Source of the DNA: an uncultured Gammaproteobacteria bacterium
GTDB lineage: Bacteria; Patescibacteriota; Patescibacteriia; UBA1558; 2-01-FULL-52-15
Assembly (NCBI GenBank): GCA_964517065.1
Contig: CAZFBK010000001.1
Coordinates: forward strand, 41,734 to 105,733
Length of the DNA: 64,000 nt
Direction: 5' to 3'
The position numbers and the translations under genes are program-made. Position 1 is the stretch's first letter. Every line of letters starts with the position of its first letter. Below, piece after piece: positions 4,139 through 40,537 of this stretch. The notes under the pieces are model-generated. The model had not been told where the DNA came from, searched no databases, and saw nothing but the letters and a program-made list of their open reading frames with translations.

Positions 4139-6597
4139 GGGTTAGTGGCTACTGAACGGCACTTAGTGAAAATTTTATCAAGCGCAGTTTTGTCCAGCGC
4201 CAAATCCTGTAGTTGCAATCCGCTGGCGTTCAGATCCACGCTCCCCATCACCGTCAGTCCACGGACACCGACGCCGATTGATTTGGCGGTGACATTGCCG
4301 GCGATATCCATATTACCAAGCACTGACAGTGTGTCGAAGGTACCGTTAGTAGCAACAGCGGAGCTCACTTGGAGACCTTGATTGTTACGTATTGATAATT
4401 GATTATTAGTGCGATCGGCCAGATAGAGCCAGCGACCAGCTATAGCTAATTTGCCGGCATCTCCAGCATCATAGGGATTAATCGTATTATTGATTCTATA
4501 CATACCAGTATTTGCAGGATCATTAATATTAAAAATCTGCAGCCCATCAGACAAAACATAAGCATAGTCATCTATCACCTGCAGGCCGTATGCCGGCGTA
4601 TTAAAATCATCAGAGAATCTTCCTGCAGCAACTCCGTCACTTAGATTAAATACATACAAACTATCTCCCGCTCCATAGATATATGAACCTCGAATCACAA
4701 CCGATGATAGCGTCGACGGAGTTGAGAGACGAGGAGCTGGACTCGGCTGACTCGGGTCAAGCAGATCAGACAGCCTGTAAACTTTCAGACCAAATAATGT
4801 ATCAGCGATCGCCACGTCATTACCCAAGATTGACAAACCTCGTGGCTGATCCAGATTAGCACTCGAGTTCATGGTTTTCTTAACGACAGGAGCGCTTGGT
4901 TTAGTAATATCGATGACCTGTAGACCTCCTCCACCAACAGTCAGATCATACAACAAAATAGCGTAGTGTCCGACAACCTGCACATCGGTAGCATAGAGAC
5001 TAGCACTGACGCCGGCCAAGGCTGCAGATGAACCGACTGGTGTCGGAAGACTAGGATTATAAATATCCACGACCCGCAGACCTATAGTTGTAGCTAGGTA
5101 AGCATAACGACCACTCACGGTCAGTCCCCAAGTCGGACTTGGTATTGCAACTCGACCAATCGAAACCGGCGCACCAGCGACACTGATATTATAAATTTGC
5201 AAACTATTACTGGTAGCCACATAGGCTGTGCTATCACGGACAACCACCGCATTCACGGTGCCACTTGTCGGAGTGATATCACTCAGATTATAGCGGCTAC
5301 TCGGCTCACCAGAGACATAGCTATGGCCGATATCAAGCTTGGTAGCGACACTCGTATCTGCTGCGCGTCCTATCAGCACACCTTTCGTACTATCCACACC
5401 ACTCGGATCAGCTGGATAATGAATACCCTTGGGATTATCTTCCCATTTCCCAGGCGTACCTGACCCTTGAGCCCAGCCACAGTTCACTTTACTAGCGTCA
5501 CACAGCAAAGCATTACCCCAATACAAATTTGACGTTGGGTTACCAGCCAGAGCCGAGACGTTAAGATTATTTTTGCTGTCAGGTCCGAACTGAATCTGAG
5601 CTTTGACGCTGGTAGTACCGTTATAATTCATAATCTCCAGAGGACCATAGGACCGTCCACCGTTGCCCAGCGTTGATGCTCCCAGCAAGGCCAGACCAGT
5701 TTTGGTACTGGTAGCATAGAGACCGGCGTGAGCAGATGTCCCGGCTGTTGATTGGGTGAAAATACCATGCTGATCAGCAGAAATAGCACTAATGGTGGTA
5801 CTAGCTAGTGTACCAGTGGCGATAATTGCAGCATCAGCGCCATTTAGTGAATTAGATCCGATATTAAAAATAGTTTTACCACTCATATTCAGCGTCTGTG
5901 TAGCGATATGATTACCCAGACCATCACCCGCAGCTCCCGCCAAAATCCAACCACAATTCGGCAAAGTCACATCACACAGGAGATTGCTACCCCAATACAG
6001 ATTATTTTCAGCGTTATTTGTTTGAGCGTTGGCTGACAGTAGATTATTGAGATTATTACCAAAAATTAAACCTGAGCTGACGTTGGTCAACCCAAATAAT
6101 TGGGCACTCAGGTGGGAGGCTGAGTCAGCGATCAGACTAGGATACCCCTGACCGTTACCCGTATGCAGTCCACTATATGCCGAATTATTAGACAGCGTGA
6201 CACTTTTCAAAGCAAAAAAATCTGTGGCCCCCAGAGAAACCCCCATCTTATCACTACTGACCTGGAGTGCGGGATCTGCCCCCGAATCTCCAATGCCATA
6301 GATGCGATATCCGGGATTCGTATCAGGGCTCAATCGCAAAAGTTTCCCCGCTTCATGAGGATTGTTCAAACCAAGGTTATCACCACTGCCTGATTGAATA
6401 GTCTGGACGGTGGTGTTGTCCGGCGGTGGACTGGGAGACATAATCCAGGTTTGCGCGCTGACAACTACCCAGCTACCGACGATAGTGATACTGACAGAAA
6501 AAACAATGAGTGCGATAAATCCAGCACCAGATTCACTGGAAGTCTGACGTTGAAAAAAAACTTTGCAAATAGCTTGAATCTTTTTAATTATAGACAT
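4129..6597 (-). CDS. Secreted repeat protein, paralog 3, with Cys-motif modules plus LVIVD-type beta-propeller repeats.
   Basis: 822-aa ORF. Motifs LYWGSNLLCDVTLPNCGW, LYWGNALLCDASKVNCGW, GDGLGNHIATQTLNM. Repeats YAYLAT..GLRVVDIYNPSLP, LQVIDITKPSAP, YAYVLSDGLQIFNINDP. 10-bp overlap with the upstream gene. Confidence 0.7.
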   Translation of the reverse strand: MSIIKKIQAICKVFFQRQTSSESGAGFIALIVFSVSITIVGSWVVVSAQTWIMSPSPPPDNTTVQTIQSGSGDNLGLNNPHEAGKLLRLSPDTNPGYRIYGIGDSGADPALQVSSDKMGVSLGATDFFALKSVTLSNNSAYSGLHTGNGQGYPSLIADSASHLSAQLFGLTNVSSGLIFGNNLNNLLSANAQTNNAENNLYWGSNLLCDVTLPNCGWILAGAAGDGLGNHIATQTLNMSGKTIFNIGSNSLNGADAAIIATGTLASTTISAISADQHGIFTQSTAGTSAHAGLYATSTKTGLALLGASTLGNGGRSYGPLEIMNYNGTTSVKAQIQFGPDSKNNLNVSALAGNPTSNLYWGNALLCDASKVNCGWAQGSGTPGKWEDNPKGIHYPADPSGVDSTKGVLIGRAADTSVATKLDIGHSYVSGEPSSRYNLSDITPTSGTVNAVVVRDSTAYVATSNSLQIYNISVAGAPVSIGRVAIPSPTWGLTVSGRYAYLATTIGLRVVDIYNPSLPTPVGSSAALAGVSASLYATDVQVVGHYAILLYDLTVGGGGLQVIDITKPSAPVVKKTMNSSANLDQPRGLSILGNDVAIADTLFGLKVYRLSDLLDPSQPSPAPRLSTPSTLSSVVIRGSYIYGAGDSLYVFNLSDGVAAGRFSDDFNTPAYGLQVIDDYAYVLSDGLQIFNINDPANTGMYRINNTINPYDAGDAGKLAIAGRWLYLADRTNNQLSIRNNQGLQVSSAVATNGTFDTLSVLGNMDIAGNVTAKSIGVGVRGLTVMGSVDLNASGLQLQDLALDKTALDKIFTKCRSVATNPCP

Positions 6598-11429: not shown

Positions 11430-12086
11430 ATGTCTGTTTTTAATACTATAATTGCCTTCCTTCTCGATCTGCTCTTCCCACGCGTCTGCGTGGGTTGCGG
11501 TGCCATGGATACACTTCTCTGCTCTGCCTGCCAGAGCTCGATCATAATCGAGCCTCAGACAAGCTCTTCCACCGCGGTTCAGAGCATACTGATTGCCAGT
11601 GACTATCAACAGCCGCTCATTCAAAAAATCATCAAAAATTTCAAATACCATAATTTGCCACAGCTGGCTGAGCCACTAGCGCAAATCCTCATCAGGGTCT
11701 TGGATACACAGCCAAACCTGCCATCATATATTCTGATCCCCATACCGCTCCATCAGAAACGACAGCGTCAACGTGGGTATAACCAAAGTGAGTTACTCGC
11801 CCAACGTCTCAGTGAGGACTATGGCTGGCCGATTGGTGAAAACATTCGTCGAATTATTAATACAGAACACCAAGCTGGTTTGAGCAGAGAGCAACGGTTA
11901 AAAAACCTGGACAATGCGTTTACATATAGAGGTCCAAGTTTGAAAGGAAAACATATATTACTGGTTGACGATGTAGTAACAACCGGTACTACTATACAAT
12001 CTGCGGCGGAAGCTCTGCTGCCGGCCGAGCCTGACTCTATCTGGGCTATTGCGGTGGCGAGAAACAGGGAAAAGGATAAAAGTTAA
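11430..12086 (+). CDS. comFC: ComF family protein / phosphoribosyltransferase (ComFC-like)
   Basis: N-terminal Cys cluster CVGCG..C..C and PRTase motif LLVDDVVTTGTT. Confidence 0.8.
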   Translation: MSVFNTIIAFLLDLLFPRVCVGCGAMDTLLCSACQSSIIIEPQTSSSTAVQSILIASDYQQPLIQKIIKNFKYHNLPQLAEPLAQILIRVLDTQPNLPSYILIPIPLHQKRQRQRGYNQSELLAQRLSEDYGWPIGENIRRIINTEHQAGLSREQRLKNLDNAFTYRGPSLKGKHILLVDDVVTTGTTIQSAAEALLPAEPDSIWAIAVARNREKDKS

Positions 12087-12958: not shown

Positions 12959-13993
12959 TTAATTATAACTCCATGACGCTCCTTGAGAATTGGTATTGAT
13001 AGCTCTACATTTATCTATTTGACCATGGATATGTCCTATTTTCCCATATCTCGTAGGGCCGTTATAATTATTATCTATATCTTTGCCCGTGGCGCAATCT
13101 AATTTATCATTACAACGCGATCCTGACCCAAAGCAGGTTTCCTCACACTGCACGTAGGTAAAACCACTTTCGGTCATTTTGAGCTCTAGCTGATGATAAT
13201 TAATACCAACCGCAGCCGGTATGGCTAAATCAACCGCACATGACTTAGGAGGATGATCTTTATTAAAAGCCCATAGATTATTAGGTCCTCCATAGTGATA
13301 CTCTCCTCCATGACTGCAACCAGATTTGACACCTCCATTTTTTAACCTGTTACAATTTCCTGTGTAGATTCGGTCGTCCGTCACAGAATTCAACACAACT
13401 GACCACAACTTTGGTACAGTATAATCAAGCCGTGAAAAAGCATTTAATAAATCTGGATGCATATCTTGAAGCTGTTTCGGATTAACACCTGTCTTGTTAA
13501 TACCAGATATGTTGCTTTCTAATGGTTGTACGACCGTATCAATCGGTAAAATGATAGGTTGTACCTGAGTGATATTCAAATCCTGCAACTCCACCAGCTT
13601 ACTATTGATCTGAGCAAACAACAGATATGAAGTCAAAGCTAATATCAGACCAAAGATAGCAGCCGAAATAGTAGACTTAGCTTCAGAAATCTTGCTGCTG
13701 TTACCGGCTGCTAGGAGCCATTGGAAACCACCAAACATGATCATGACCACAGCCAATACGATCGCCCCTTGGACGAAGAAACTATAAAGCGCAGCGATAT
13801 AACAACCGAGGAAGCTGCCGTCCATCTTAGCCGTGCAATGCAGGGCATTGAGATAGGGATCAAGCCCGATCGAGGAGTTGAACTGAACCTTTTCAACTGT
13901 GGGCGGCTGATTATTAACAAACTGATTAAGACCGTTGTACCAAGGATCGGCAGCGTGGGCTACCGCGATAAATTTATAAAATAATGCGTTCAT
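12959..13993 (-). CDS. Secreted/membrane protein. Signal peptide plus a two-TM hairpin reminiscent of VirB2/TrbC pilins, followed by a Cys-rich C-terminal domain with a possible peptidase-like SHGG...AVDLA motif.
   Basis: Signal peptide cleavage site AHA/AD. Two long hydrophobic helices separated by a short loop. About 200-aa Cys-rich C-terminal domain. The assignment is topology-based only. Confidence 0.35.
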   Translation of the reverse strand: MNALFYKFIAVAHAADPWYNGLNQFVNNQPPTVEKVQFNSSIGLDPYLNALHCTAKMDGSFLGCYIAALYSFFVQGAIVLAVVMIMFGGFQWLLAAGNSSKISEAKSTISAAIFGLILALTSYLLFAQINSKLVELQDLNITQVQPIILPIDTVVQPLESNISGINKTGVNPKQLQDMHPDLLNAFSRLDYTVPKLWSVVLNSVTDDRIYTGNCNRLKNGGVKSGCSHGGEYHYGGPNNLWAFNKDHPPKSCAVDLAIPAAVGINYHQLELKMTESGFTYVQCEETCFGSGSRCNDKLDCATGKDIDNNYNGPTRYGKIGHIHGQIDKCRAINTNSQGASWSYN

Positions 13994-14622
13994 AGTATGA
14001 ATGATGAGTCAATTATTTGGCGCCATTGTGACAGTGAGATGTCTTCAGCCACTCGGATCGTACCATTCAGCTCGAAATATGGGATCGAGGGTATCCCAGC
14101 AGTAGTAGCATCAGCGATATCCTGCTCTATCAGCGACAGCGTCGCACGGTCATTGAGACAACGGGAAAATAGTGCTCGATCTAAGTGTAAATCATCTGCA
14201 ATAGATATCCAAATACTAGCGTCGTCTGTCAAACGAGTTTGTCGTGCAAAAAGCTCATCATGATACTGCCAAAACTTTCCTTGCAGCTGGGCGCACCGTG
14301 CAGCCAGAGCTGCTGTCCGAGCATTATCAGTATCAAGTGGCAAATCCTTGCGTACTATTCTGACTTTATCGCCATAGATCGCCCGTAGTTGGTCCAAGGT
14401 CAAAGCGGACGTACGGCAGGCAGGACAGGTGAAACTACTAAAATACACCAAGGTCGTCTTGGCTGTGACGGGACCAACTGCAGGATCTTCAGCTCGCAAC
14501 GGCACCGCAATAAAAGCCTGACCAACGCTGCCAGGTATTATTCTGTTTCTGACCGTAATATAATAAAACACGATACCGCTCAGTATCAGTAATGCTAACA
14601 AGCTAAAGCCAAATAATTTCAT
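13990..14622 (-). CDS. DsbA-like thiol-disulfide oxidoreductase (thioredoxin fold, membrane anchored)
   Basis: N-terminal TM. CxxC active site FTCPACRTS. 4-bp overlap with the downstream gene. Confidence 0.7.
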   Translation of the reverse strand: MKLFGFSLLALLILSGIVFYYITVRNRIIPGSVGQAFIAVPLRAEDPAVGPVTAKTTLVYFSSFTCPACRTSALTLDQLRAIYGDKVRIVRKDLPLDTDNARTAALAARCAQLQGKFWQYHDELFARQTRLTDDASIWISIADDLHLDRALFSRCLNDRATLSLIEQDIADATTAGIPSIPYFELNGTIRVAEDISLSQWRQIIDSSFIL

Positions 14623-14629
14623 CGTTAAT

Positions 14630-15886
14630 TTATTTCAAACGAATACTATGCAGGGTACCCGTGGCACGGTCGACGAAATACAGTATCGACTGATCGGGTG
14701 ACAGTGAGACTGACTGAGCAGTATAGCTCTGCTGACTGCCAACCGGCAAAGCTAATGGTACTTTGTTGCCGGAGATCAGATCGATACGATAGAAGACATC
14801 AGGTGTAGTATTCGCCAGATCAGGGTAGAGACCAGAACCCTGCGACAGCTCGATCGGCACAGCACAATAGATCGAGCTCTCCGTCTGATCGAAGGCACAC
14901 TTATCTGGCCACGTATTCAGCTGCAAATCAGTCTGACTATAGCCTATATCTCCTGTCCTGCCCTCTGTCAGCCACAGTCGCGGCTGATAGCCATCTGAAG
15001 CACTAGCAGTACTATAGAGGAGATATGATCCTCCCGGAGACCAGGAGCCGGTGAATTTCAAACCGTCGACATTGAAGGACTGGAACTGCTCTTGATTGCG
15101 TCCGATCGGCACCACCTCTTGCCCATCAGTACCTGTGGCTTTGCGATAGAGTGCTACTACTTGATTGTCCGGTGAGACATTGACCGCGACATTGAGCTCA
15201 CGATCTCCGACTGGCTCGACTATCTTGATATCACTCCCGTCTGCCGAGCCTGCCATCAGCCAGGTCGTATCAGGTTTACCGCCATTCCAGATAGCCGCGA
15301 ATGACCGGCCATTAGAATCCAGCGAAAACTTCTCCAGCTCCTTCGGCAGACTGACCTGTTTACCTTTATTGAAATCATACAGAATATTTGATCCGTCAGG
15401 ATATTCCAAAATTGCCACACTCTTATTGGCGGCCCAGGTAACGTCTGAGACATTATAAAATTTCTCCGTCCCCAATGTCGTCACGGTACCGTCAGATGTC
15501 AACGTCTGAAAGACAGATAAATCAGGATTATAATAGGTCAAACCATTGGTAGTCGGCACAGCAAACTCCACTTTGGTAGTTCCATAATCAGTGACTGCTG
15601 TCTGGCCACCTTGAGCCACCTCGTCGATACCGGTCGTACCGCCAAACTGAGGTAAGCCACCATTGCTATTCGGAACATTTACCACTGGAATATTTCCTTG
15701 ATTAATATTGGGCAGTTGACCAGTGCCGGTATTAGTATTTTGATTGCCTGATTTTGGCACCAGACTGCCAAATATGATCGTAATCAAGGCCCAGGCTAGT
15801 AAGAGTACCACTACGACGAATCCTATAATTAAAAATAGACGTTTTCTTTCCATATTATTGTGAACAAGAATAAATTTGACAACCAA
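14630..15886 (-). CDS. Secreted TolB-like / WD40-like (PD40) beta-propeller protein
   Basis: N-terminal TM. Repeated SPD(G/N)..(V/L)(A/L)(Y/F) blades (SPDNQVVALYR, SPGGSYLLYS, SPDQSILYFV). Confidence 0.5.
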   Translation of the reverse strand: MVVKFILVHNNMERKRLFLIIGFVVVVLLLAWALITIIFGSLVPKSGNQNTNTGTGQLPNINQGNIPVVNVPNSNGGLPQFGGTTGIDEVAQGGQTAVTDYGTTKVEFAVPTTNGLTYYNPDLSVFQTLTSDGTVTTLGTEKFYNVSDVTWAANKSVAILEYPDGSNILYDFNKGKQVSLPKELEKFSLDSNGRSFAAIWNGGKPDTTWLMAGSADGSDIKIVEPVGDRELNVAVNVSPDNQVVALYRKATGTDGQEVVPIGRNQEQFQSFNVDGLKFTGSWSPGGSYLLYSTASASDGYQPRLWLTEGRTGDIGYSQTDLQLNTWPDKCAFDQTESSIYCAVPIELSQGSGLYPDLANTTPDVFYRIDLISGNKVPLALPVGSQQSYTAQSVSLSPDQSILYFVDRATGTLHSIRLK

Positions 15887-16373
15887 GATCTTTCAGCCAA
15901 GAAAAAACTACCTCCAGTCCTAGGCGTAGCAACATACCGGGCTGCAGGAAGACCATTAAGGTGACACTAATGATAAAGACGATAAGCAACAATCCATGAG
16001 TACCAAACATCACCCAACGCTCTATCTTGCTAACTTTCTGCCAAACACCGGGCCACTCGAATCCCATGATATTAGCCGTCAGATAACGCAAGGTGGTCTC
16101 CAGCACGTACCAGATAAAAGTCAACGGATTCAAGGCTGTGACGAGACGAAAAAGACGGATAGTTGAATCTGTTTCTTGACGCAGCGCCTGAATGCTGCCA
16201 CCCTGTTGATCTTCTTGCTGTTCTACTGCCTGCTTGGTTTCCATCCGATCCTGCAACCGTTGCTGTTCGAATTGTTGCTGATACCGTTCCTCACGTTCCG
16301 CCGTATCATCAGCGAGTCCCAAGCTGGGCATTTGTAATACCTGTGCCATATTATTGCCATTCTGCTCGGTCAA
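15855..16373 (-). CDS. Hypothetical Gln-rich protein with C-terminal TM segments
   Basis: 172-aa ORF in the operon with the VirB4-like gene. No recognisable domain. Confidence 0.4.
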   Translation of the reverse strand: MTEQNGNNMAQVLQMPSLGLADDTAEREERYQQQFEQQRLQDRMETKQAVEQQEDQQGGSIQALRQETDSTIRLFRLVTALNPLTFIWYVLETTLRYLTANIMGFEWPGVWQKVSKIERWVMFGTHGLLLIVFIISVTLMVFLQPGMLLRLGLEVVFSWLKDLGCQIYSCSQ

Positions 16374-16956
16374 CCAACCAATGGTCGCCCGATTTTACTA
16401 ATGAAACTATAATATCTTGATAGTACTCGTTGATTTTTAAATCTGCTTTGCGTTCACTGCGCTGCGTCTTGACTGTCAGACGTGCTTCCGAAGCTGTTTG
16501 TGACACCAGCTTAATGCTAATGACGTGAGTTTCGATACCGGTATAAGCCTGAGCTGTATCTTGGCGCTTAGAAAAATCAAAACGACCTTGAAATGCTGGT
16601 GTGACCATAGACCAGACATCGCGGATATTTTGCTGGTTACTTTGGTTGGAGAAGCTGCCATAGCGTTCGACGAAGGTCCGCGTCACCACCGACAGCTCAG
16701 CACCAGCCGGTGCAGTGATCGGTAGCACTTGATTGACGTTTGTATTAGCAGCATTATCTGGTGTCACTGATTGAGGTTGTAATACTACCGGCGCTAATGT
16801 TCGTTGAGACAAAAACCACCAAAACCAAATCCCCAGACCAATGAGAACGACAACGACACCAATACTCAGCCACACTTTCGGTCGTGAAAAAATATTAGCC
16901 AGCGGCATTGATTTGGGCGTTAGTTTTCTCAGCGAAGTCGCGTTTGGCCTGTTCAA
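16351..16956 (-). CDS. Hypothetical membrane-anchored protein (N-terminal TM)
   Basis: 201-aa ORF. TM segment VVVLIGLGIWFWWFL. Overlaps the upstream gene, so the true start may be the internal Met near 16908. Confidence 0.45.
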   Translation of the reverse strand: MNRPNATSLRKLTPKSMPLANIFSRPKVWLSIGVVVVLIGLGIWFWWFLSQRTLAPVVLQPQSVTPDNAANTNVNQVLPITAPAGAELSVVTRTFVERYGSFSNQSNQQNIRDVWSMVTPAFQGRFDFSKRQDTAQAYTGIETHVISIKLVSQTASEARLTVKTQRSERKADLKINEYYQDIIVSLVKSGDHWLVDRAEWQ

Positions 16957-18790
16957 TCTCGAGGAGCTGTTTTGGATCTGAGGTGATCAGCTGATCCTCG
17001 GTATACGAAGCCATTATTTTGATGGCAGCATGCTTGGCACCGGCGAAAAATATTCCCTCTCCCACGGCACTCTCCAGCAGTAGATATTTCTCTCCTTCGG
17101 TTAATAAGAAAGTCTTTTGAATATTATTAATAGCTGCCGGTGATTGCTTCAATAGCATTTGCATGGACGAATTGGTAACGATCGCCTGTCCGTAGGGCGA
17201 CAGTAAGAAGTCATTAACATCCTGAGTAATAGTCGTGATACCAAGGTAATATTTACGACAACGTTTGACTAAGGCGTAGATGAACTTGGCACTATCTTCG
17301 TGTTGCATCAGCCACCAGGCTTCGTCGATTATCAGTAGACGCTTCTTGACGGAAGAGCGAACAATATTCCAGATATAGTTAATAACTGTGTAAATGGCGA
17401 TTGGTCGCAGCTCATCTTCCAGATCTCGGACACTGAAGACCACCAATTGATTATCCGTATTTACATTCGTCGGATTATTAAACAAACCAGCAAAGGTACC
17501 TTGAGTATACTTTTTGATGCGCAGCGCAATATCTTCGCCGCCCACCATACCCATCAGCACTTCTTCGAAATCAGACATCAGCGGCATGCTGGCTCGCGTC
17601 CAATCTGAGCTAGCATTGATATCTTTCTTGGCATAGGTTTCGAGCAAGGCCCGATCAACGATGGAGTCCTCCTCATTGGTCAGATCACCGACCATCAGAC
17701 GGATCAGTCCTTTCAGAGTAATGACAGCGCTGCGAAGAATATCTTCCGGCCGGGCGTCTCCTACCTTACGGGGCAAATCAAAAGGATTTAATTTACTTTC
17801 AGAATTCAATGAGAGGTTAATGTAGGCACCACCGACCGAATCAGATAAATGCAAATATTCTTTCTCCGGGTCGATAATAATAATCTCCATACCCAACATC
17901 ATACTACGCAGGACTTCTAGTTTCACCGCGTAGCTTTTGCCGGCACCTGAGGTAGCGAAAACCACTGAATTAGCATTCTGCAGACTGAAACGATCAAAAA
18001 TAATTAAACTATTATTGTGACGGTTAATGCCGTACATGATACCGTTATCAGAAGTTAATTCTGAGGATACAAACGGGAACGAAGCTGCCGCTGGCGAGCT
18101 ACTCATATTAGCAGCGACAAAGAGCTCGTCGTTGCCTAATGGCAATGTCGAGTTGAAACCCTGTTCAGATTGATAAAAAGCCCGACGTGACATCACCAGA
18201 TGAGCGCCGAGCAGATTTTCAATTTTGTCTGAAGCAGAGTCCAGCTGTTCTTTGTTCTCAGCGTAGACCGTGATATAGAGGGCATATTGGAAAAACCGCT
18301 CAGTACCCTGACTGAGACTGTCGCGCAAACTTTCGATATCGCCCAAAGCAGTTTCTTGTACTGGATCACGCGGAGCACCCTTCTCTCTGTCCGAAATAAT
18401 CTGTGATTCGATGACACCGACTTTTTTCTTCAACTGCTTCAAGACTGCGGTGCTGTCAATCGGATAAAAAAACATAGCAATATCCAACGGTAAGCTATAG
18501 TTGATGATCGGGGCAAACCAGCTGATCGTGACGTAGCGCGGATAGGCAATGACAAAAATAGTCCGAGCATAGAGCGGTCCCAGCTGGACATAGCTGACGT
18601 CGACTTTGAACGATGAAGGCGCGATCAGATCACGGATACTGACGACACCTTCGCGGAAAACCTTCTCCGCTTCCAGGACAGTAATATCTTCTTCAGTTCG
18701 TTCTCTCAGCTGTTGCTCTTGCTGCGCCAAACCAACGCGCTGCTCGTCATCGTTGGGGAAATTACTAGTAACTTGTTGGGGTTTAAACAT
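16895..18790 (-). CDS. VirB4/TraC-like type IV secretion ATPase
   Basis: Walker A FATSGAGKSYAVK. Walker B LLIIDEAWW. About 630 aa. The N-terminal portion may be encoded by the adjacent upstream 248-aa ORF. Confidence 0.7.
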   Translation of the reverse strand: MFKPQQVTSNFPNDDEQRVGLAQQEQQLRERTEEDITVLEAEKVFREGVVSIRDLIAPSSFKVDVSYVQLGPLYARTIFVIAYPRYVTISWFAPIINYSLPLDIAMFFYPIDSTAVLKQLKKKVGVIESQIISDREKGAPRDPVQETALGDIESLRDSLSQGTERFFQYALYITVYAENKEQLDSASDKIENLLGAHLVMSRRAFYQSEQGFNSTLPLGNDELFVAANMSSSPAAASFPFVSSELTSDNGIMYGINRHNNSLIIFDRFSLQNANSVVFATSGAGKSYAVKLEVLRSMMLGMEIIIIDPEKEYLHLSDSVGGAYINLSLNSESKLNPFDLPRKVGDARPEDILRSAVITLKGLIRLMVGDLTNEEDSIVDRALLETYAKKDINASSDWTRASMPLMSDFEEVLMGMVGGEDIALRIKKYTQGTFAGLFNNPTNVNTDNQLVVFSVRDLEDELRPIAIYTVINYIWNIVRSSVKKRLLIIDEAWWLMQHEDSAKFIYALVKRCRKYYLGITTITQDVNDFLLSPYGQAIVTNSSMQMLLKQSPAAINNIQKTFLLTEGEKYLLLESAVGEGIFFAGAKHAAIKIMASYTEDQLITSDPKQLLEIEQAKRDFAEKTNAQINAAG

Positions 18791-18791
18791 A

Positions 18792-19538
18792 TTAGTCTAC
18801 CGCTAAATTATTGATATCTTCCAAAGGCTGACTCTGATACATCGTAGGGTTGTAGCTGTTATAATACAGCTCAATCAGGGCTTGAGTATTCAACCGTTGT
18901 ACCTGCAAACCCATGCTGGTCAGGCCTGAAGAAATAAAAATTGAACGTTTGGTTAATTCGCGAGAATATTTTTCAAATTTTTCCTTACCAACGATAACCT
19001 TACGGGCAGCGGTGAAAACATCAAGTAAACGGTCAGAATATTTACGTTTCTGATCATTGATCGGATTATAGTTAACTACAACATAAAAACGCTTACTCAT
19101 GATACTTTCCAGCTCCAGCAGTTCCGAGACAAAATTACGATAATCGGCAGTCTGCATTCTCAGGAGCTCATTGGTGTGCTCTCGCTCGGTCTTCTTCAGA
19201 CGTTCCAGATAGTCGTCAATATTGAGCGGACGTGATTGAATAACAATTTGTAAAGGAAATGACAAGGAATTCAAGAAAGTGACATAAGCCCCGACCATAG
19301 AAGCTTGCTCGTCTTCTGACTTCAGATCGAAGTTGATAGACGAGACGATCAAAACTGCTCGTAACGTACCGTCACGCATCAAGGCTACGTCTTCTTTGAT
19401 CTCGGCAATATCCAAATACTTCTGCGCCGACGGCAGGTGATGTTTCGGCTTCTGGTGCTCTGGTTTATTTTTGGCCATAGACAGCGTTATGAATAAAATT
19501 TGCTTCTTGCTCGCCTTTATAAATACCACCGGTATCAA
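18792..19538 (-). CDS. Hypothetical protein immediately upstream of and abutting the VirB4-like gene. Possibly a split VirB4 N-terminal domain.
   Basis: Stop at 18792 lies two bases from the VirB4-like start at 18790. Combined length of about 880 aa equals a canonical VirB4. No motif of its own was recognised. Confidence 0.4.
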   Translation of the reverse strand: MIPVVFIKASKKQILFITLSMAKNKPEHQKPKHHLPSAQKYLDIAEIKEDVALMRDGTLRAVLIVSSINFDLKSEDEQASMVGAYVTFLNSLSFPLQIVIQSRPLNIDDYLERLKKTEREHTNELLRMQTADYRNFVSELLELESIMSKRFYVVVNYNPINDQKRKYSDRLLDVFTAARKVIVGKEKFEKYSRELTKRSIFISSGLTSMGLQVQRLNTQALIELYYNSYNPTMYQSQPLEDINNLAVD

Positions 19539-19923
19539 CGATCAGAGCCAACTCTGATAGTTTAGAAGCTGTCAGATGTTGTTTTGGGATGAAAATCTCT
19601 TCCTGATGTTTATTCTCGTCTTTCGCTTTGACCTCTAATAACAGCTCCTTTTGCCAGACTCTGAGCTCCGGCTTACGCAGACGTGAGATATAGTTCAAAG
19701 CAAAAATATGAAAGGGCGCACCGTTAATTTTCAGAAAGGCCACTGTACCACCGACTAACAAAAGAAAGCTGCCTTGAAACAAAAATAAATTGAATGGCGA
19801 TAAACGATAGGACAAGAAAACTAATAGTCCAGTGATGATAACGATGACGAATTGTCGAGTGGTAATAGCCCCAATAATTTTGTCTTCGATATCAATGAAT
19901 TGTGGCACGATAAACTTGCGCAT
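19465..19923 (-). CDS. Small two-TM membrane protein, VirB3/PrgI-like by position and topology
   Basis: 152-aa ORF with two adjacent hydrophobic helices (FVIVIITGLLVFLSY ... LLLVGGTVAFL), located just upstream of the VirB4-like region. Confidence 0.35.
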   Translation of the reverse strand: MRKFIVPQFIDIEDKIIGAITTRQFVIVIITGLLVFLSYRLSPFNLFLFQGSFLLLVGGTVAFLKINGAPFHIFALNYISRLRKPELRVWQKELLLEVKAKDENKHQEEIFIPKQHLTASKLSELALIVDTGGIYKGEQEANFIHNAVYGQK

Positions 19924-19926
19924 AGT

Positions 19927-21165
19927 TTAAAATCTCAGATGCTTATTGAGATCAGTAATAGCTTCAAACTCATCGACTGTGAGAGCCTCCTGCCCGCCTG
20001 TCTGTAGAGCAGTAATTGCCTGATTGATATCCATATTTTGTTCTAGACTCTGATGACCGATAGCGAGATACATCTGATAGACTTCATTCTTCCTCCAGCC
20101 ATCGATACCTTGAGCCCGTCGCAACAGTGACTCTTTGCCTAAGTTAACAATACGTTGAAGAATTTTTGCCACCCGCATACGAGGATCAGGGTCTAAAGCG
20201 CGGAAATCTTGCAAGGACATAGTAGAGAGTTCATCAACCTTGCCTAGAATACGATTATTCGGACGTTTCACCTTGGGCAGTTGATCGACCATGGCGCTGA
20301 CATCGGTCATTGGTCGACTGACCTTCGGTAGGTCGCCAGCGGAACGGATCATCGGCTCTGCTAATGCACCTGACGGAGTGACCTCCGGCACCACACTGAC
20401 AGGCTTCTCGGGCTGCGCTGGCACTGAGGGTTCTACTGGTTGAACGGGGCCTACCTCGCGCTTTGCCGAGGATAGCTCGTCAGACATTGGTTGGAAATCA
20501 CCCTTTACTGATAACGGTTTGGATAAAATGTCCGCAATTGGTTTCGGCGTTGACTCTGTCTCAGGTGCACTCATGCCTCGTTCTCCTCCTGCTTCCACCA
20601 CTACACCATCGACACTCTCTATCTTCTCTTTCAAACTTCGAGCTATCAGCATGACCTTATCAGCAATAGCAGGATCAAGGCCAAAACCGACAACACCAGT
20701 ATCAGCTAATAAACCTCTCATCTGAACGAAGCTACGCGCCTGACGAAAGAATGACAGCAAAGATTTGACGAAACGGGCGTACTGCTCCGGTGAGAACTTT
20801 AGTTCGTTTTTTTCTACCAGTTTCTCAGCAATTTTTTCTACGCTATATTTTTTGCGCTCATTGGCAGACAGATAGGAGTTGATTTTCTCCAGCTCAGAAG
20901 CTATATCCTGCTGATCGTCTGGATGAAAATGAAAATCAGCTTTTGAGCCTGGATCTGGAGCAACTTGTGGCGCTGGTACGAAATGCTCATCAGTCGGAAC
21001 CACAGCTGGAAGAGCAGCCGCTGGTAACGGATTTACTGATGTCGTGATTTGGGCACTGATATCGCCAGAACTAGACGACAAAGTACCATCCTGAAACGGC
21101 TTAAACTGGCCGTTACTATCTTTAATCAAAATATTATTATCAAGTTCGGTTTGTGATAAGGCCAT
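19927..21165 (-). CDS. Hypothetical Pro-rich low-complexity protein
   Basis: 412-aa ORF. PxxP-rich segments (PVEPSVPAQPEKPVSVVPEVTP). First gene of the minus-strand cluster. Confidence 0.45.
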   Translation of the reverse strand: MALSQTELDNNILIKDSNGQFKPFQDGTLSSSSGDISAQITTSVNPLPAAALPAVVPTDEHFVPAPQVAPDPGSKADFHFHPDDQQDIASELEKINSYLSANERKKYSVEKIAEKLVEKNELKFSPEQYARFVKSLLSFFRQARSFVQMRGLLADTGVVGFGLDPAIADKVMLIARSLKEKIESVDGVVVEAGGERGMSAPETESTPKPIADILSKPLSVKGDFQPMSDELSSAKREVGPVQPVEPSVPAQPEKPVSVVPEVTPSGALAEPMIRSAGDLPKVSRPMTDVSAMVDQLPKVKRPNNRILGKVDELSTMSLQDFRALDPDPRMRVAKILQRIVNLGKESLLRRAQGIDGWRKNEVYQMYLAIGHQSLEQNMDINQAITALQTGGQEALTVDEFEAITDLNKHLRF

Positions 21166-22800: not shown

Positions 22801-23484
22801 ATGTGGCTTTTTACAGACCAGGAAAAATCACTAATCCGCTCTCTTCTCGAAAAAGGGAAAATAGAGCAGGAAAAGAACAAAAAATTCGCTATAATCGATT
22901 TTGATGTTTTTTGTCGTTTATTTACACCAAAAGAAGTAACCATGTTCAAAAAATATCTCGCAATCGACCCACAAAAGATAGGTTACAAACTCCCTTTTAT
23001 TGGTATGGGGCAAAATACAGATAACCTTGTAGCAATTGAAGGACAATTATTTCTTGACGCTAATGGAGAGAAAAAGAATATACCCTGTCAGTATCTTCCG
23101 CCAGAAACTTACGAAGCCTATATCCAATTAAACAAAGCTTTGGAAGGTGACATTAGTAAAAAACTACTCATACAATATGGCCACCGTTCCCTCGCACGCC
23201 AAGTCTTCATATTTTTTGATATTTTAGAAAGGATTTATGACTTTGATTTTGACCAGACAATAAAAAGAGTCTGTTTCCCAGACTATAGCGAACACGTCTG
23301 CATGAAACAGCAAGCTATAGATTTTAAAACGGAAGATGGGGTCAAAAGTGAAGACTTCTATCAGACAAAGGAGTACGAATGGTTGAAAAAGAATGCGATG
23401 AAATTTGGGTTTTATGAGTCTTACCCCAAAGATAATATAATGGACATGATGTATGAACCCTGGCATTGGCATCATGAGAGTTGA
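22801..23484 (+). CDS. Peptidase M15 family (VanY-like D-Ala-D-Ala carboxypeptidase) cell-wall hydrolase
   Basis: C-terminal EPWHWHHE motif and an upstream AIDFK, typical of M15. Confidence 0.5.
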   Translation: MWLFTDQEKSLIRSLLEKGKIEQEKNKKFAIIDFDVFCRLFTPKEVTMFKKYLAIDPQKIGYKLPFIGMGQNTDNLVAIEGQLFLDANGEKKNIPCQYLPPETYEAYIQLNKALEGDISKKLLIQYGHRSLARQVFIFFDILERIYDFDFDQTIKRVCFPDYSEHVCMKQQAIDFKTEDGVKSEDFYQTKEYEWLKKNAMKFGFYESYPKDNIMDMMYEPWHWHHES

Positions 23485-26010: not shown

Positions 26011-27273
26011 TTATAACAACACAAAACGCTTGTCGGTATACTGTACCTGTCGCCAGCGCCACTGACCCGCTGCCACATCAATATACACCGGCGGTGTGGG
26101 CAGCTTCATCACCTGACTGAGGTATTCTGCTGCCATAGCAGAGTCTGCCGGCTGCAGCTGTATTTTGTCTTCAAGTAATAATTGCAAAAATAATGTCCAA
26201 TTGACCGCTGACCATTCACTCTGCCACAACGTTTTGGCCCGATCACCGAAGCGTACATTGATATAGCGACGAAGAATTCCGATATAACGCTGATCTGAAC
26301 GTAATAATTCGGATAGGTATTGCTTCTCAGCCAAAAGCGTCAGAGCCACCAGAGCACGTTCATGTTCGCTTAGACCAATAGCATTCCACAGGAGATCAGC
26401 CAGACGACTCCCCTCTCCACCACTCTCGACCGTCAGTCCATCCTGCAAACGATCAACCTGTAGCTGTAACTTGGCTACATACTGATGGTATTGATCCATA
26501 AGATCATCGACATCAGCAACTTGACTCATCTGCATCCGCGGTTGCGCCTCACCGACTTCGGCAATATTCAAGAAATTCTCAGTCATCGTCAGACGCATCG
26601 GACGTGCTTCATTGTATGAAGCCAGGAAATTCAGCAAGTTATCTTTCTCATCTTGTGACAGACGTTTCGCGTTGACACTGCGGACTAAATATTGACTACG
26701 GATGAGATTATCAGAGGCTTCAGCTCCGGCGAAGTGCAAATAATCCTTCAGCCAGTTTTCCAGCGTCGGCTCGATCTGTCTACCCGCCTCGTCTGTAATA
26801 TAATTCTTGGTCAGGAACAAATCTTTGTTGGCAACATTCTCCCCCATGAAATCCCTTATGGGTTGGATCACAGCGTCATCATCCGGTTGTTCTATCAGCT
26901 CAGCTTCTGGACTGGACGTCGGCGGAGCCTTCAGTTCTGGCACTACTGCCGGCACTTTACCGCCGAGACGCAGGATCAATCTGTCAACGTCACCAAGATA
27001 TATTTGCAATGGCCAGAGACGGAGATAGGCGAAATCACGTGCTAACTCCAAAATATCAATGTTCTTTAGATCTAATTTTGATAGAGCTACGTGAAACTCA
27101 AGTACGGGGATCTCCTTGGTAATTACTGATATCAGAACTTGCAATACCTGCTGCAATTGGGATGGTGTCAGATGATATATAGTAGCAATAGTATGATTGA
27201 TGTCAGTGCTACGCTCAGCAAAAACAACAGCTTGAACTTCTGGTGGTAGACTTTGTAATGTTTGAGGCGACAT
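26011..27273 (-). CDS. Hypothetical protein, paralog of the adjacent 144-aa protein (shared about 85-aa N-terminal domain)
   Basis: N-terminus LQSLPPEVQAVVFAERSTDINHTIATIYHLTPSQLQQVLQVLISVITKE aligns with the 27280-27714 product. Confidence 0.5.
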   Translation of the reverse strand: MSPQTLQSLPPEVQAVVFAERSTDINHTIATIYHLTPSQLQQVLQVLISVITKEIPVLEFHVALSKLDLKNIDILELARDFAYLRLWPLQIYLGDVDRLILRLGGKVPAVVPELKAPPTSSPEAELIEQPDDDAVIQPIRDFMGENVANKDLFLTKNYITDEAGRQIEPTLENWLKDYLHFAGAEASDNLIRSQYLVRSVNAKRLSQDEKDNLLNFLASYNEARPMRLTMTENFLNIAEVGEAQPRMQMSQVADVDDLMDQYHQYVAKLQLQVDRLQDGLTVESGGEGSRLADLLWNAIGLSEHERALVALTLLAEKQYLSELLRSDQRYIGILRRYINVRFGDRAKTLWQSEWSAVNWTLFLQLLLEDKIQLQPADSAMAAEYLSQVMKLPTPPVYIDVAAGQWRWRQVQYTDKRFVLL

Positions 27274-27279
27274 AAATAA

Positions 27280-27714
27280 CTATTTCTCTTGCGGTAGCGT
27301 ACCACCAAGAGATTGTAATAAGATTTCGACCCCACCGATCCATTCCCGAAGCGGCCAGAGACGCAGATATACCAAATCAAGCATTAATTGTTCGAGATCT
27401 ACCCCTGGCAAATCTAGTGTTGCTATAGCTTCCTTAAAATCACTAGCCGGTAACTCTTTAGTAATCACAGCAATAATAATCTGCAATATCTGCTGTAATT
27501 GAGCGCTTGTCAACCTATGAATTACTGCAATGTTATGATTTATATCAGACGTACGTTGCTGAAAAACCACTGATTGAATCTCCTCCGGTAATGTCTGCAG
27601 TGTATAAGATATTCTAGATTCTTTCATGTTATTATGTAGCTTTCGTAGGTCTAACCTGGGGTTTCTTTGGAAGTTTCGGCGGTGTCTTGCCACCAGCATG
27701 GAAAACCGAAGCAC
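27280..27714 (-). CDS. Hypothetical protein, short paralog of the 420-aa protein
   Basis: LQTLPEEIQSVVFQQRTSDINHNIAVIHRLTSAQLQQILQIIIAVITKE. Same domain as the neighbour. Confidence 0.5.
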   Translation of the reverse strand: MLRFSMLVARHRRNFQRNPRLDLRKLHNNMKESRISYTLQTLPEEIQSVVFQQRTSDINHNIAVIHRLTSAQLQQILQIIIAVITKELPASDFKEAIATLDLPGVDLEQLMLDLVYLRLWPLREWIGGVEILLQSLGGTLPQEK

Positions 27715-30118
27715 CGGCTTCTGCGTAATACTGATTTCTTTCTATCTGAGCGTTATCATACGCCTCAGCTAGATTTGAAATCGTTTCCCATTCCTTCTCC
27801 ATCGTGGCTAAATTTTTGTCACCGCTTGCATTGACACGGGCATCGGCGAAAGTATCAGCTTCCATTATCTGCTTAACCACACGTGGATCAGCCGCTTTGG
27901 CGTGTTTGATGAGTATTTCCCTTTGTGTCACGTTGCCCATCTCACCAGCACCTTTTATCTGAGTGTGACTTAACTCTGGAGCGATAACCTTTAGTTGCTC
28001 TGGGTCTAACCTGACAATTTGTTCAGCTTTCAAAATACCGACAGTGTTCTTAACCGCAGGGTCCTTAGGGTTTGCAGCTAAGAGCGTCTGAGCCTGTTTT
28101 ACAAACTCATCAGCATCTAATCTCGCCATTATACCCAATGACTTCTCATTATTATGATAGGTTTTAGCATATGCCTTGGAAAACGTCTTTTGAGCTTCTT
28201 TTGTTTGTCTCTTAATACCTTTTTCTATATCATCACTCGAACCACCTGCTGCACTGAACCCATCCAAAATAGACTTCCTCATTGTATCTGGTAATTTCTC
28301 AAAGGAATCCGCGTGAATACCTGCAATCAGTTTATCCGCTTCCCCCTTAGCTACTGACGCCACAGCGATTTCATTTCGGGTCTTCTCATTACTAATACGA
28401 CTCCAATTCTGTTGTTCGAAGTTCTCCAAATCTTTCTCCATAGTTTGACCTCCCGCTTTCAGAGCCTCATGAGCAGCATCAACATATTGTTCATTTTTCC
28501 CATTCTTGAATTCGCCGTCAGATACGAGATTAGCCACAGCCGCAGCCGCCCCATTGCGATCCACATCATGTATAGCATTTAGTCTCGTCTGCACCGGATC
28601 ATATTTCATAGCTTTACGCTTAGCCTCAATATCCTGGGCCTTCAGAGTGGAATCCATACGAGCAAACTCTCGAGCAGCCCGATGAGCTGGATTCAGCGCC
28701 GCACCACCCATGACTTGGATTGTACCCTTAGCCACAGTCCTCGTCACATCACCAGCAAAACGTCCAACCTTTTCACCTGCTACTGAGCTCACTCCTCTCT
28801 GAACATTACTGGCCAGTCTACCGGTAACCATATTCGTCAACTGATTACCCCTATCAAGCAGATTTGCTGCCCCACCGATCGGCATAGCAGCCAGTGACCG
28901 AGCTGTACCAACGAGTCCGCCAGCGCCTGAGCGACCCACCAAAACCGACTTACCGATACCGGTCAGCTTACCAGAAGCTTTCTTGGAAATACCAGCACCG
29001 ACAGTACCAAGCTTGCCCGCCATCATCAGAGAACCAAACAGTAAAGAAATAGCCACAAAGAAACGAATCAGACTTTTGGCCGCTGAAGTATTCGAAGCGC
29101 TTGATGGAGCGTTGGTCGTGCTGTCTGTCACTACACTGACAGATGAAGAGCTGCTATCGGTGGCACGGTCACTGATCGTTCCAGAGAGCACTCCCGGTCC
29201 GCCTTCATTCACCACCGCGAAGCTCAACCAGAGGAAAAAAGCCAAGGTCGGTCCGAGAACGAGGTATTTCGATAAATTATCCCACCACTCCAGATAATAT
29301 TTGCTGGCTGTCGGTAAGGTACTGCAAAGGAAGGCTACTGGAGACAGGATGATGATAAAGACAAACATGATGATACGCATCAGGAAGAGGAAGGTAATGA
29401 CACTGACCACTACTAAGGTGACGAGAAGCATGATCCCACCGAGACCAATCTGAAGCAGAACCGTCAAAATATTGGCCTGAGGGAAATCAGAGCCCTGCCA
29501 CAGCGTCATCCAACCGGTCAATCCTAATAATTTCGGGAAGCCTCCCTGGATAGCATCGAGGAAGGCATTGACGAAGGTCAGCGTCACCGCCTGAGAAAGA
29601 TCAATGAAGAATAAGGTAATTGTTTTGCTGAAATTAATCAAAATAGCCATCAGGATCAAACGACGAAGATTCTGCTGATAGCCATACCGACCACTTTTCA
29701 CAATCGTACCGACCGCCACTACTACCAGGATGAGGATGAAGAACATATTACTGAGATCACGCAAAACCGTCCAACCTTTGGTGACGATAGCCTCATCACC
29801 AAAACCCTGATAACTCAAGACCCATACCATGACATTCGTCACGAGGGCGAGGATCCAACCCGGAATATAGATAAAGGCTAAATAAAATATGAATGCTAAT
29901 CCCTTTGCTACAAATGATAATGGACCAGCGCCGTCTTGTACCGCAGTGGCGGTCGCACTACCGACTGGAGCACCGGTATCCACATCCTGAGCCCACACCA
30001 CCCGCACAAAAACTAATCCAACGAGACAGATAAATAAACCTAAGCCCAACCAGTACTTACTTGTTGGCTTTTGTGTCCAGGTACGGATAGCGTGGAATGT
30101 TGCAGTGAAAAATTTCAT
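27632..30118 (-). CDS. Polytopic membrane protein. Signal peptide, about 7 TM helices and a long soluble C-terminal region. VirB6/TrbL-like topology.
   Basis: 828-aa ORF. Hydrophobic helices across residues about 70-370. Start codon overlaps the giant gene's stop (TAATG). Confidence 0.5.
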   Translation of the reverse strand: MKFFTATFHAIRTWTQKPTSKYWLGLGLFICLVGLVFVRVVWAQDVDTGAPVGSATATAVQDGAGPLSFVAKGLAFIFYLAFIYIPGWILALVTNVMVWVLSYQGFGDEAIVTKGWTVLRDLSNMFFILILVVVAVGTIVKSGRYGYQQNLRRLILMAILINFSKTITLFFIDLSQAVTLTFVNAFLDAIQGGFPKLLGLTGWMTLWQGSDFPQANILTVLLQIGLGGIMLLVTLVVVSVITFLFLMRIIMFVFIIILSPVAFLCSTLPTASKYYLEWWDNLSKYLVLGPTLAFFLWLSFAVVNEGGPGVLSGTISDRATDSSSSSVSVVTDSTTNAPSSASNTSAAKSLIRFFVAISLLFGSLMMAGKLGTVGAGISKKASGKLTGIGKSVLVGRSGAGGLVGTARSLAAMPIGGAANLLDRGNQLTNMVTGRLASNVQRGVSSVAGEKVGRFAGDVTRTVAKGTIQVMGGAALNPAHRAAREFARMDSTLKAQDIEAKRKAMKYDPVQTRLNAIHDVDRNGAAAAVANLVSDGEFKNGKNEQYVDAAHEALKAGGQTMEKDLENFEQQNWSRISNEKTRNEIAVASVAKGEADKLIAGIHADSFEKLPDTMRKSILDGFSAAGGSSDDIEKGIKRQTKEAQKTFSKAYAKTYHNNEKSLGIMARLDADEFVKQAQTLLAANPKDPAVKNTVGILKAEQIVRLDPEQLKVIAPELSHTQIKGAGEMGNVTQREILIKHAKAADPRVVKQIMEADTFADARVNASGDKNLATMEKEWETISNLAEAYDNAQIERNQYYAEAGASVFHAGGKTPPKLPKKPQVRPTKAT

Positions 30119-39318: not shown

Positions 39319-39321
39319 AAC

Positions 39322-40110: not shown

Positions 40111-40123
40111 AAGTGTGTTTACC

Positions 40124-40232: not shown

Positions 40233-40324
40233 AAAAAATCTTTTATATTATAGCATGTTTCCGTCGCCACTGCCAAATATTTCACTACATGGGCGTAATA
40301 CGTAATTCGTAATACTAAGTTAGC

Positions 40325-40526: not shown

Positions 40527-40537
40527 GGATTTTGAAC

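Follow-up and report, generated by a model that had tools for sequence, protein, structure and literature searches.

A run of nine genes in the chromosome of an uncultured bacterium closest to Candidatus Komeilibacteria (class ABY1) raises three questions: which machine it encodes, whether the ATPase gene of that machine has been broken in two, and what the machine transports. The genes occupy positions 12959-21165 of a 64,000-nt stretch (hereafter the window) of contig CAZFBK010000001.1 from assembly GCA_964517065.1, where the ORF listing gives nine minus-strand open reading frames (ORFs) of 412, 152, 248, 631, 201, 172, 418, 210 and 344 amino acids (aa) that abut or overlap throughout. An initial annotation, made from the letters alone, had already described nine co-directional, overlapping genes of a type IV secretion-like locus. 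We find that the locus is very probably a chromosomal type IV secretion system (T4SS) of the Patescibacteria clade (Candidate Phyla Radiation, CPR), related to the conjugation systems of Gram-positive bacteria (MPF-FATA class), which would exchange macromolecules with a host cell and not conjugate. Such systems are already described as typical of ultrasmall Patescibacteria, in the main texts of Wang et al. 2023 (PMC10633639) and of the survey by Quiñonero-Coronel et al. 2025 (PMC12102498); what is new here is a detail, a pilin-like protein fused to a predicted peptidase domain.

The ATPase gene and its detached N-terminal domain

The 631-aa protein passed the curated cut-off of the NCBIfam model conju_CD1110, a VirB4 of the Gram-positive CD1110 type (367 bits against 325), and that of CagE_TrbE_VirB (23.1 bits against 21), and it matched P-loop_TraG with an E-value of 6.7e-26. 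Among solved structures it is closest to the VirB4 C-terminal domain 4ag5 (E = 2.6e-44) and next closest to TrwK/VirB4 of R388. The Walker A (GAGKS, aa 282-286) and Walker B (IIDEAWW, aa 487-493) motifs, by which the initial annotation had recognised a VirB4/TraC-like ATPase, are both intact. We identify the locus as a T4SS because this ATPase passes the VirB4 cut-off and the small protein encoded upstream is PrgI/VirB3. An FtsK/HerA-type P-loop protein was considered and rejected, the curated VirB4 equivalog cut-off having been passed; the two outcomes that the annotation had named as telling against it, an FtsK/HerA grouping and small membrane proteins lacking T4SS homologues, are not what we found.

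The 248-aa ORF in front of the ATPase gene had been noted to abut it, and the summed length of the two to equal a full VirB4, split or frameshifted. A single base separates the stop codon of the first from the ATG of the second (GTA GAC TAA T ATG TTT), and the two lie in different frames. On the 894-position VirB4 model of a Mycoplasma integrative and conjugative element (VirB4_plasma) they cover positions 96-241 (E = 4.6e-8) and 292-893, respectively, in agreement with the summed length. The 248-aa ORF matched the NCBIfam TrsD/TraD model at E = 1.4e-8 and 34.8 bits, below the curated cut-off of 200; its orthologues bear the Pfam domain PF26593 (TraC-like) and are usually 224-229 aa long.

Two ORFs in different frames, one nucleotide apart and jointly covering a full-length model, could be what is left of an integrated conjugative element from a Gram-positive bacterium, decaying or frameshifted, with its VirB4 broken in two. 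The closest relatives outside the Patescibacteria do lie on Firmicutes plasmids, and a Pfam scan that covered nearly all window ORFs of 120 aa or more, apart from the giant gene described below, recovered no relaxase, no VirD4 coupling protein and no integrase; that the first two are not visible in the window had already been noted in the initial annotation. The related loci speak against such a remnant. We compared 82 of them, from GTDB species genomes and two metagenome contigs, in records variously titled Komeili-, Falkow-, Magasanik- and Parcubacteria; the co-occurrence counts given here and below are uncorrected for shared ancestry. A TrsD homologue precedes virB4 as a separate gene in all 82, the VirB4 ORF measures 621-690 aa in every one, and the TrsD-to-VirB4 spacing runs from -47 to +498 nt, which excludes a shared sequencing error. 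VirB4 is 65-97% identical to the window protein over these variously titled lineages, and therefore appears to be under strong purifying selection; the top database homologues among the matches listed, from records labelled Komeili-, Kerfeld-, Falkow- or Parcubacteria, share 70-97% identity with it and have a uniform length of about 630 aa. TrsD-like genes also stand apart on Firmicutes plasmids. On Geobacillus plasmid pGspE55-1 the order is PrgI, a 318-aa TrsD-like protein, a 636-aa DUF87/VirB4 protein, a 907-aa protein and an M23 peptidase.

The genomic setting points the same way. No tRNA, integrase or repeat signal was found flanking the cluster, and there is no compositional anomaly, G+C being even over the region at 0.43-0.47. 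The flanks consist of housekeeping genes (ClpB-like, S6-SSB-S18, elongation factor P (EF-P) and TsaD/E), and this synteny around the T4SS is conserved in the related loci. A mobile-element remnant is rejected on context, composition and conservation, and we regard it as very improbable indeed. A VirB4 frameshift or pseudogene was likewise rejected, the two-gene form being present in 82 of 82 loci and on a Firmicutes plasmid. Judged by these gene arrangements, the split is an ancient and conserved one: the annotation was right to suspect a divided gene, and the frameshift it offered as the other option is contradicted by the variable spacing. For annotators, the two-gene TrsD/VirB4 is the normal state and a pseudogene flag is unwarranted.

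Membrane partners of the ATPase

The 152-aa protein, initially annotated as a two-transmembrane protein in a VirB3-like position, is PrgI (PF12666, 30.4 bits against a cut-off of 27). Its two transmembrane (TM) segments were predicted at about aa 16-39 and 44-66, and its gene lies directly upstream of that for TrsD in 76 of the 82 related loci. Both small proteins that had been placed in the membrane downstream of the ATPase belong there, and the first of them, of 201 aa, has an identity that was overlooked. A sequence-profile search of the PDB found no VirB8 for it, and fold comparison alone resolved it. The AlphaFold2 model (pLDDT 83.7, from an alignment of 22 sequences) has a TM helix, then helices and a long, curved, four-stranded sheet, and its top Foldseek matches in the PDB were TrwG/VirB8 of R388 (full-length chains included), CagV, PrgL and TcpC, with E-values of 3.5e-5 to 8e-4 and a probability of 1.0; the PrgL match is the VirB8 domain from pCF10. 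Because its predicted fold matches VirB8-type structures, the 201-aa protein is, at the level of predicted fold, a VirB8-like component. A homologue is encoded immediately downstream of virB4 in 73 of the 82 loci.

The second small protein, of 172 aa, has a charged N-terminus followed by two TM helices, and the same architecture is seen in 14 positional orthologues that we aligned. It matched no family and evolves fast; BLASTP detected only two orthologues among the related loci. We considered it as a second pilin and rejected this on account of its long charged N-terminus, its lack of a signal peptide and a negative pilin hidden Markov model (HMM).

A search for VirB6 in the rest of the genome had been proposed, although a VirB6-like gene lies inside the window itself. 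Its 828-aa product has at least six TM helices within the first 370 aa and a long hydrophilic tail after them. Pfam TrbL/VirB6 was matched by 6 of 21 family members (best E = 1.6e-4), and a few weak NCBIfam matches were to the Firmicutes and Mycoplasma conjugative membrane proteins CD3337/EF1877 and MMCAP2_0566. We consider the protein probably VirB6-like, with confidence that is only moderate because the window protein itself matches nothing. Homologues are found upstream and co-directional in 30 of the 48 related loci with sufficient upstream flank (at least 9 kb), and often directly adjacent. In the window the gene sits about 6.5 kb from the upstream end of the operon, and a methyltransferase, a VanY peptidase and an S6-SSB-S18-EF-P block lie between the operon and the VirB6-like gene with its 420-aa companion. 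Sequence-profile searches of the PDB with the VirB6-like protein, the propeller described below, the 412-aa protein and TrsD gave nothing usable.

Conserved core and variable tail

The core of the related loci runs 412-aa protein, PrgI, TrsD, VirB4 and 201-aa protein, all co-directional and at fixed offsets, with homologues detected in 71, 76, 82, 82 and 73 of the 82 loci, respectively. Median identity to the window proteins is 70% for VirB4, 52% for TrsD, 45% for PrgI, 32% for the VirB8-like protein and 29% for the 412-aa protein. Every one of the 48 loci whose upstream flank reaches 9 kb or more has the homologue of the last, invariably in the same direction as virB4 and at about -2.7 kb from it. 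By this conservation the 412-aa protein is a core partner of the T4SS operon. It has no Pfam, NCBIfam or PDB sequence match, and Pfam scans of its family members gave scattered noise.

More distant homologues of the 412-aa protein carry an extra N-terminal domain with the consensus MLxYLxKFNxLPxxLR...; the window protein and its close relatives are of a short form that opens with a (V/I)KDxDGxFK motif. Loss of that domain by frameshift was rejected, since the 300 nt upstream have stops in all frames and the close relatives are short as well. The 420-aa protein has no family or structure match, and profile comparison showed no relation to the 412-aa family (hhalign probability 1.6%). In 20 of the 48 loci its homologue separates the VirB6-like gene from the start of the operon. 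Beside it, a 144-aa ORF (27280-27714, minus strand) duplicates in tandem part of the N-terminal domain of this 420-aa protein, the two sharing the motif LP.E.Q.VVF..R..DINH...QLQQ.LQ.I..VITKE.P.

Downstream of the 201-aa gene the loci have a variable tail, which consists of ComF, of DsbA and RadA, or of the type seen in the window: a small TM protein, sometimes a pilin, a propeller, DsbA and a pilin.

A pilin-like protein with a predicted peptidase domain

The last gene of the operon encodes the 344-aa protein, for which the description first given, a pilin topology joined to a Cys-rich domain, holds up. The Pfam T4SS_pilin model (PF18895) matched aa 70-122 with 26.6 bits, exactly its cut-off. 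A signal-like N-terminus is followed by TM helices at aa 61-97 and 107-131, a linker and a 170-aa Cys-rich domain; the protein has ten Cys in total, and its pilin-borne domain eight, six of which are invariant in the family. An HMM scan of all window ORFs found no second pilin. VirB2/TrbC pilins have a signal peptide and two hydrophobic helices with a short loop, and polymerise as small mature proteins. These are usually about 70-120 aa long, whereas the pilin module of the 344-aa protein carries a 200-aa globular C-terminal domain, which by the usual VirB2 topology would be extracellular. The pilin-like ORFs in related loci are all long as well (227-693 aa), with differing Cys-rich C-termini.

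The C-terminal domain matched no Pfam model, M15 and HH_signal included. When its predicted structure (pLDDT 77.9, pTM 0.74, from an alignment of nine sequences) was compared with the PDB by Foldseek, the top 38 fold matches were all Hedgehog N-terminal domains (E about 1e-2, probability about 1, target-normalised TM-score up to 0.52), and weak viral fold matches were enriched in M15A/M15B peptidases and endolysins. The pattern C..C.H....HYG...CA.D...CE...C...H.H..C is invariant over 15 homologues, as are H228, H233, D255, E284, H321 and H323 of the 344-aa protein. Comparison of the family profile with the N-terminal domain of Sonic hedgehog (Shh-N) by hhalign gave a probability of 77.7% and an E-value of 1.9e-5, with H/HYxG/AVD/E/HIH aligned to their Shh counterparts; the C-terminal third of the Shh-N query sequence agrees with the 4c4m chain. 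The aligned Shh residues are H135, H141, D148, E177, H181 and H183, the positions that bind zinc and serve catalysis in the Hedgehog/DD-peptidase (LAS) fold.

The Cys-rich C-terminus of the pilin is predicted to adopt this LAS zinc peptidase fold, with the putative active residues kept. In the model it resembles Hedgehog N-domains and the bacterial M15 (LAS) DD-/LD-peptidases both in fold and in the zinc and catalytic residues, which align residue for residue; unlike them, it sits behind a two-helix T4SS pilin module, has eight Cys and carries a 20-30 residue insertion between HYGG and AVD. The domain is rare, with 15 representative clusters among 1.84 billion proteins, and a pilin module stood in front of it in nine of the ten clusters tested. 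The fusion is a small, lineage-restricted variant, and its novelty is incremental.

Only tentatively do we suggest, from the predicted fold, that the sole VirB2-like pilin may be an obligate fusion to a catalytically intact LAS/M15-type zinc peptidase. If this were true, a T4SS fibre or membrane stub would bear its own wall-cutting enzyme on every subunit, and the pilin-borne peptidase would replace the missing VirB1 and might breach host peptidoglycan where epibiont and host meet. The ABY1 pilins, with their range of lengths and variable Cys-rich C-termini, would then serve as a scaffold that displays exchangeable extracellular effector domains, with maturation by the DsbA of the operon and assembly together with the co-occurring propeller.

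A predicted intact LAS-type peptidase at what would be the extracellular end of the only pilin-like protein also brings to mind an antibacterial or host-lysing weapon, comparable to the Xanthomonas-type T4SSs that deliver peptidoglycan hydrolases, and tubular structures suggested to be T4SS pili have been reported at a parasite-host interface in a 2026 preprint (10.64898/2026.06.21.733656). The peptidase domain is found in few lineages, however, and the pilins of related loci bear other Cys-rich C-terminal domains, so that the peptidase cannot be what the system is for in general. The domain might just as well remodel the cell's own wall in the role of VirB1, and no immunity gene is evident. 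We consider a weapon doubtful, and exchange with the host the better account of the locus.

DsbA and the beta-propeller

The 210-aa protein is the CxxC DsbA oxidoreductase that the initial annotation had named: it passed the cut-offs of Thioredoxin_4 (81.2 bits) and DSBA (40.2 bits), and has CPAC at aa 66-69 and a TM anchor at aa 1-26. DsbA is encoded inside the T4SS cluster in 29 of the 44 loci with enough downstream flank (at least 6 kb). Weak matches to the Pfam and NCBIfam TraF models were also seen (E = 0.02-0.07). As with the F-type T4SS helpers TraF/TrbB and plasmid Dsb proteins, a thioredoxin-fold gene shares an operon with Cys-rich extracytoplasmic parts; unlike TraF/TrbB, the window protein is a canonical CxxC DsbA/Thioredoxin_4, membrane-anchored and from a monoderm, and any relation is by fold only. 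A thiol-oxidoreductase association is not limited to Patescibacteria, as a TlpA disulfide reductase adjoins the T4SS of Geobacillus subterraneus pGspE55-1 (35379-51948). This plasmid is typed non-mobilizable, and type II secretion F-family genes also adjoin its T4SS.

The 418-aa protein, with a predicted N-terminal TM helix, had been read as a PD40, TolB-like propeller. The window protein itself gave propeller matches only at E = 0.01-0.03; among its family, Beta-prop_THOC3 was matched by 7 of 18 members (best E = 3.3e-6) and PD40 by 3 of 18 (best E = 3.8e-5). TolB was rejected, as TIGR02800 scored 14.7 bits against a cut-off of 343 and over 84 residues only, and no tol or pal genes were found near the propeller gene. 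We call the protein a PD40-like propeller and not TolB because its family matches propeller models and the TolB model failed widely, which keeps one part of the earlier reading and discards the other. In the 44 loci with downstream flank, propeller and pilin were both present in 16 and both absent in 26; the propeller occurred alone in two and the pilin alone in none. In view of this strict co-occurrence, the propeller may take part in the handling of pilins.

Directly upstream of the VirB6-like gene lies a giant gene (30118-39318, minus strand) for a 3066-aa secreted protein with 134 Cys, an N-terminal signal or TM segment and one CBM_4_9 domain; large ORFs are found there in relatives too (3341 aa in one). 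The giant protein is a candidate adhesin or substrate, and a likely client of DsbA.

Function of the system

By analogy with solved T4SSs and Gram-positive systems, VirB4 and TrsD would dock on PrgI/VirB3 on the cytoplasmic side of the membrane and drive both assembly and transport by way of a VirB6/VirB8 channel, and the machine would pull the pilin module out of the membrane. DsbA may make the disulfides of the Cys-rich exported parts, namely the pilin domain, the propeller and the neighbouring giant protein. The LAS-type domain would cut peptidoglycan peptides in place of the missing VirB1, in the cell's own wall, letting the machine through, or in the wall of the host. The system would serve contact-dependent exchange of macromolecules with the host cell. 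We favour this over conjugation because no relaxase or coupling protein accompanies the locus in the window, and because the homologous system of a saccharibacterium is essential for epibiotic growth independently of ComEC. A non-conjugative role had been suggested at the outset and agrees with the view published in the main texts of PMC10633639 and PMC12102498; the former describes the T4SS as essential for epibiotic growth in a saccharibacterium.

The lack of a relaxase or VirD4 in the window would also suit a DNA-uptake (competence) machine like Helicobacter ComB or the archaeal Ced, feeding ComF, RadA and RecG, and linkage to these three makes DNA import a live alternative. In 42 of 44 loci the downstream flank includes at least one of them, ComF has a homologue in 35 of the 82 (co-directional with virB4 in 30), and the ComF of the window, with a double zinc ribbon and a phosphoribosyltransferase domain, is found 0.9 kb past the downstream end of the operon. 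A match of the ATPase to the CedB DNA-import model was seen as well (E = 1e-15), far below the model's cut-off. The main text of the published survey likewise notes linkage to comF, recG and radA in ABY1 (PMC12102498). However, related genomes do not testify independently to the linkage, RadA and RecG serve in general repair as well, and the window holds no ComEC or ComEA. Uptake in Saccharibacteria needs type IV pili and ComEC, and loss of comEC ends transformation but not viability (PMC10633639, as related in PMC12857230). The T4SS is essential whereas comEC is dispensable for viability, so ComEC-dependent uptake is not what makes the T4SS essential. On balance we think a competence machine unlikely, and exchange with the host remains our preferred reading.

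Several points weigh against that reading and its parts. The window covers only 64 kb, and VirD4-like proteins are common elsewhere in patescibacterial genomes, according to the main text of the survey (PMC12102498). The VirB6-like call draws on the weak matches of a minority of its family, the window protein having no family match at all, and profile comparison of this family with the 907-aa protein of pGspE55-1 gave a probability of 7.9%. The predicted peptidase derives from a nine-sequence model, Foldseek E-values of about 1e-2 and no Pfam match. A 200-aa domain on the sole pilin may also block pilus polymerisation; if the two are incompatible, the protein may be a membrane anchor and not a fibre subunit.

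Comparison with known systems

The locus agrees with the Patescibacteria-clade T4SS in being chromosomal, with a monoderm-type VirB4, a stand-alone TrsD, PrgI and a VirB2-like pilin (unusual for a monoderm), in having no relaxase or coupling protein nearby, and in its comF linkage and VirB8, both as in ABY1. In the main text of the survey, no T4SS companion is commoner in Patescibacteria than TrsD, a remote homologue of the VirB4 N-terminus, and PrgI/VirB3 comes next; the systems have VirB2-like pilins (PF18895) and no relaxase, and VirB8 homologues are almost confined to ABY1 (PMC12102498). The window differs in three respects. It has a single pilin gene fused to a peptidase-fold domain in place of an array of short pilins, its operon includes DsbA and a membrane-anchored propeller, and its VirB6-like gene is split off by ribosomal-protein and methyltransferase genes. 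The pilin-peptidase fusion, the DsbA and propeller genes in the operon with their tie to pilin genes, and the displaced VirB6-like gene are unmentioned in the main texts of PMC10633639 and PMC12102498 (supplementary tables not covered).

Like the Firmicutes MPF-FATA systems (the TrsC-TrsD-TrsE trs operon of pGO1/pSK41 and the CD1110 type of the Clostridioides CTn), the locus has, in this gene order, a VirB3-like protein, a TrsD-like protein and a VirB4 of about 630-670 aa; it shares with them a VirB8-fold partner in the membrane, probably a VirB6-like one, and a peptidoglycan hydrolase of its own, here the predicted one. In contrast to the window, those systems belong to mobile elements that also encode a relaxase and a coupling protein (VirD4 or TcpA). 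They rely on surface adhesins and lack a pilin, and their hydrolase is a separate lytic transglycosylase, CHAP or M23 protein, not fused to a pilin.

Few machines are known to be essential to the epibiotic life of Patescibacteria, which are very abundant and mostly uncultured, and their T4SS is one of these. The present locus leaves the general picture unchanged and provides a clean ABY1-class example in which nearly all parts are assigned: VirB3, TrsD, VirB4, VirB8-fold protein, VirB6-like protein, pilin, DsbA and propeller.

Gene coordinates and further features of the window

The features are listed in Table 1. For several genes the longest ORF probably begins too early, and orthologue lengths favour starts at 19478, 16908, 16349 and 15853. 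Start 19478 gives a TrsD of about 228 aa, and 16908 a 185-aa product identical to the database protein P0121 (185 aa); with the revised starts the nine genes are still tightly packed. Matches to promoter and terminator consensus sequences at the cluster were not above shuffled expectation.

Table 1. Positions in the window of the T4SS genes and their linked neighbours
Feature	Coordinates	Strand	Remarks
412-aa soluble protein	19927..21165	-	first operon gene; 0 Cys, no TM; directly upstream of PrgI
PrgI (VirB3-like), 152 aa	19465..19923	-	PF12666 above cut-off, two TM helices
TrsD/TraC-like, 248-aa ORF	18792..19538	-	stand-alone homologue of the VirB4 N-terminal domain; likely ATG 19478
VirB4-type ATPase, 631 aa	16895..18790	-	without N-terminal domain; Walker A 17933-17947, Walker B 17312-17332
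VirB8-like bitopic protein (by predicted fold), 201-aa ORF	16351..16956	-	one TM helix and NTF2-like C-terminal domain; likely start 16908
Small two-TM protein, 172 aa	15855..16373	-	fast-evolving, charged cytoplasmic N-terminus
Membrane-anchored extracytoplasmic beta-propeller, 418 aa	14630..15886	-	PD40-like blades, two invariant Cys
Membrane-anchored DsbA-like oxidoreductase, 210 aa	13990..14622	-	CPAC 14416-14427
Pilin-LAS fusion (LAS fold predicted), 344 aa	12959..13993	-	TM1 13703-13813, TM2 13601-13675, LAS domain 12989-13501
VirB6-like polytopic protein (moderate confidence), 828 aa	27632..30118	-	at least six TM helices, hydrophilic tail
420-aa soluble protein	26011..27273	-	accompanies the VirB6-like gene
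ComF/GntX-type protein	11430..12086	+	DZR_2 and Pribosyltran; linked neighbour, machine membership not shown

Many of the TPA metagenome-assembled genomes that carry such loci are titled 'uncultured Gammaproteobacteria bacterium' and one 'Nanoarchaeota archaeon', labels that are apparently placeholders or wrong. Between the two T4SS sub-clusters of the window, positions 22801-23484 (plus strand) encode a VanY-type (M15B) D-Ala-D-Ala carboxypeptidase with no obvious signal peptide; it is absent at the matching position in the related loci inspected and is therefore probably unrelated to the machine. Elsewhere in the window there are expanded families of exported proteins. LVIVD repeats are found in two adjacent proteins of about 810-820 aa (1709-6597, minus strand) and in one of 372 aa (62546-63664, minus strand), and three consecutive paralogues with a PsbP_2 domain are encoded at 56009-60234 (plus strand).

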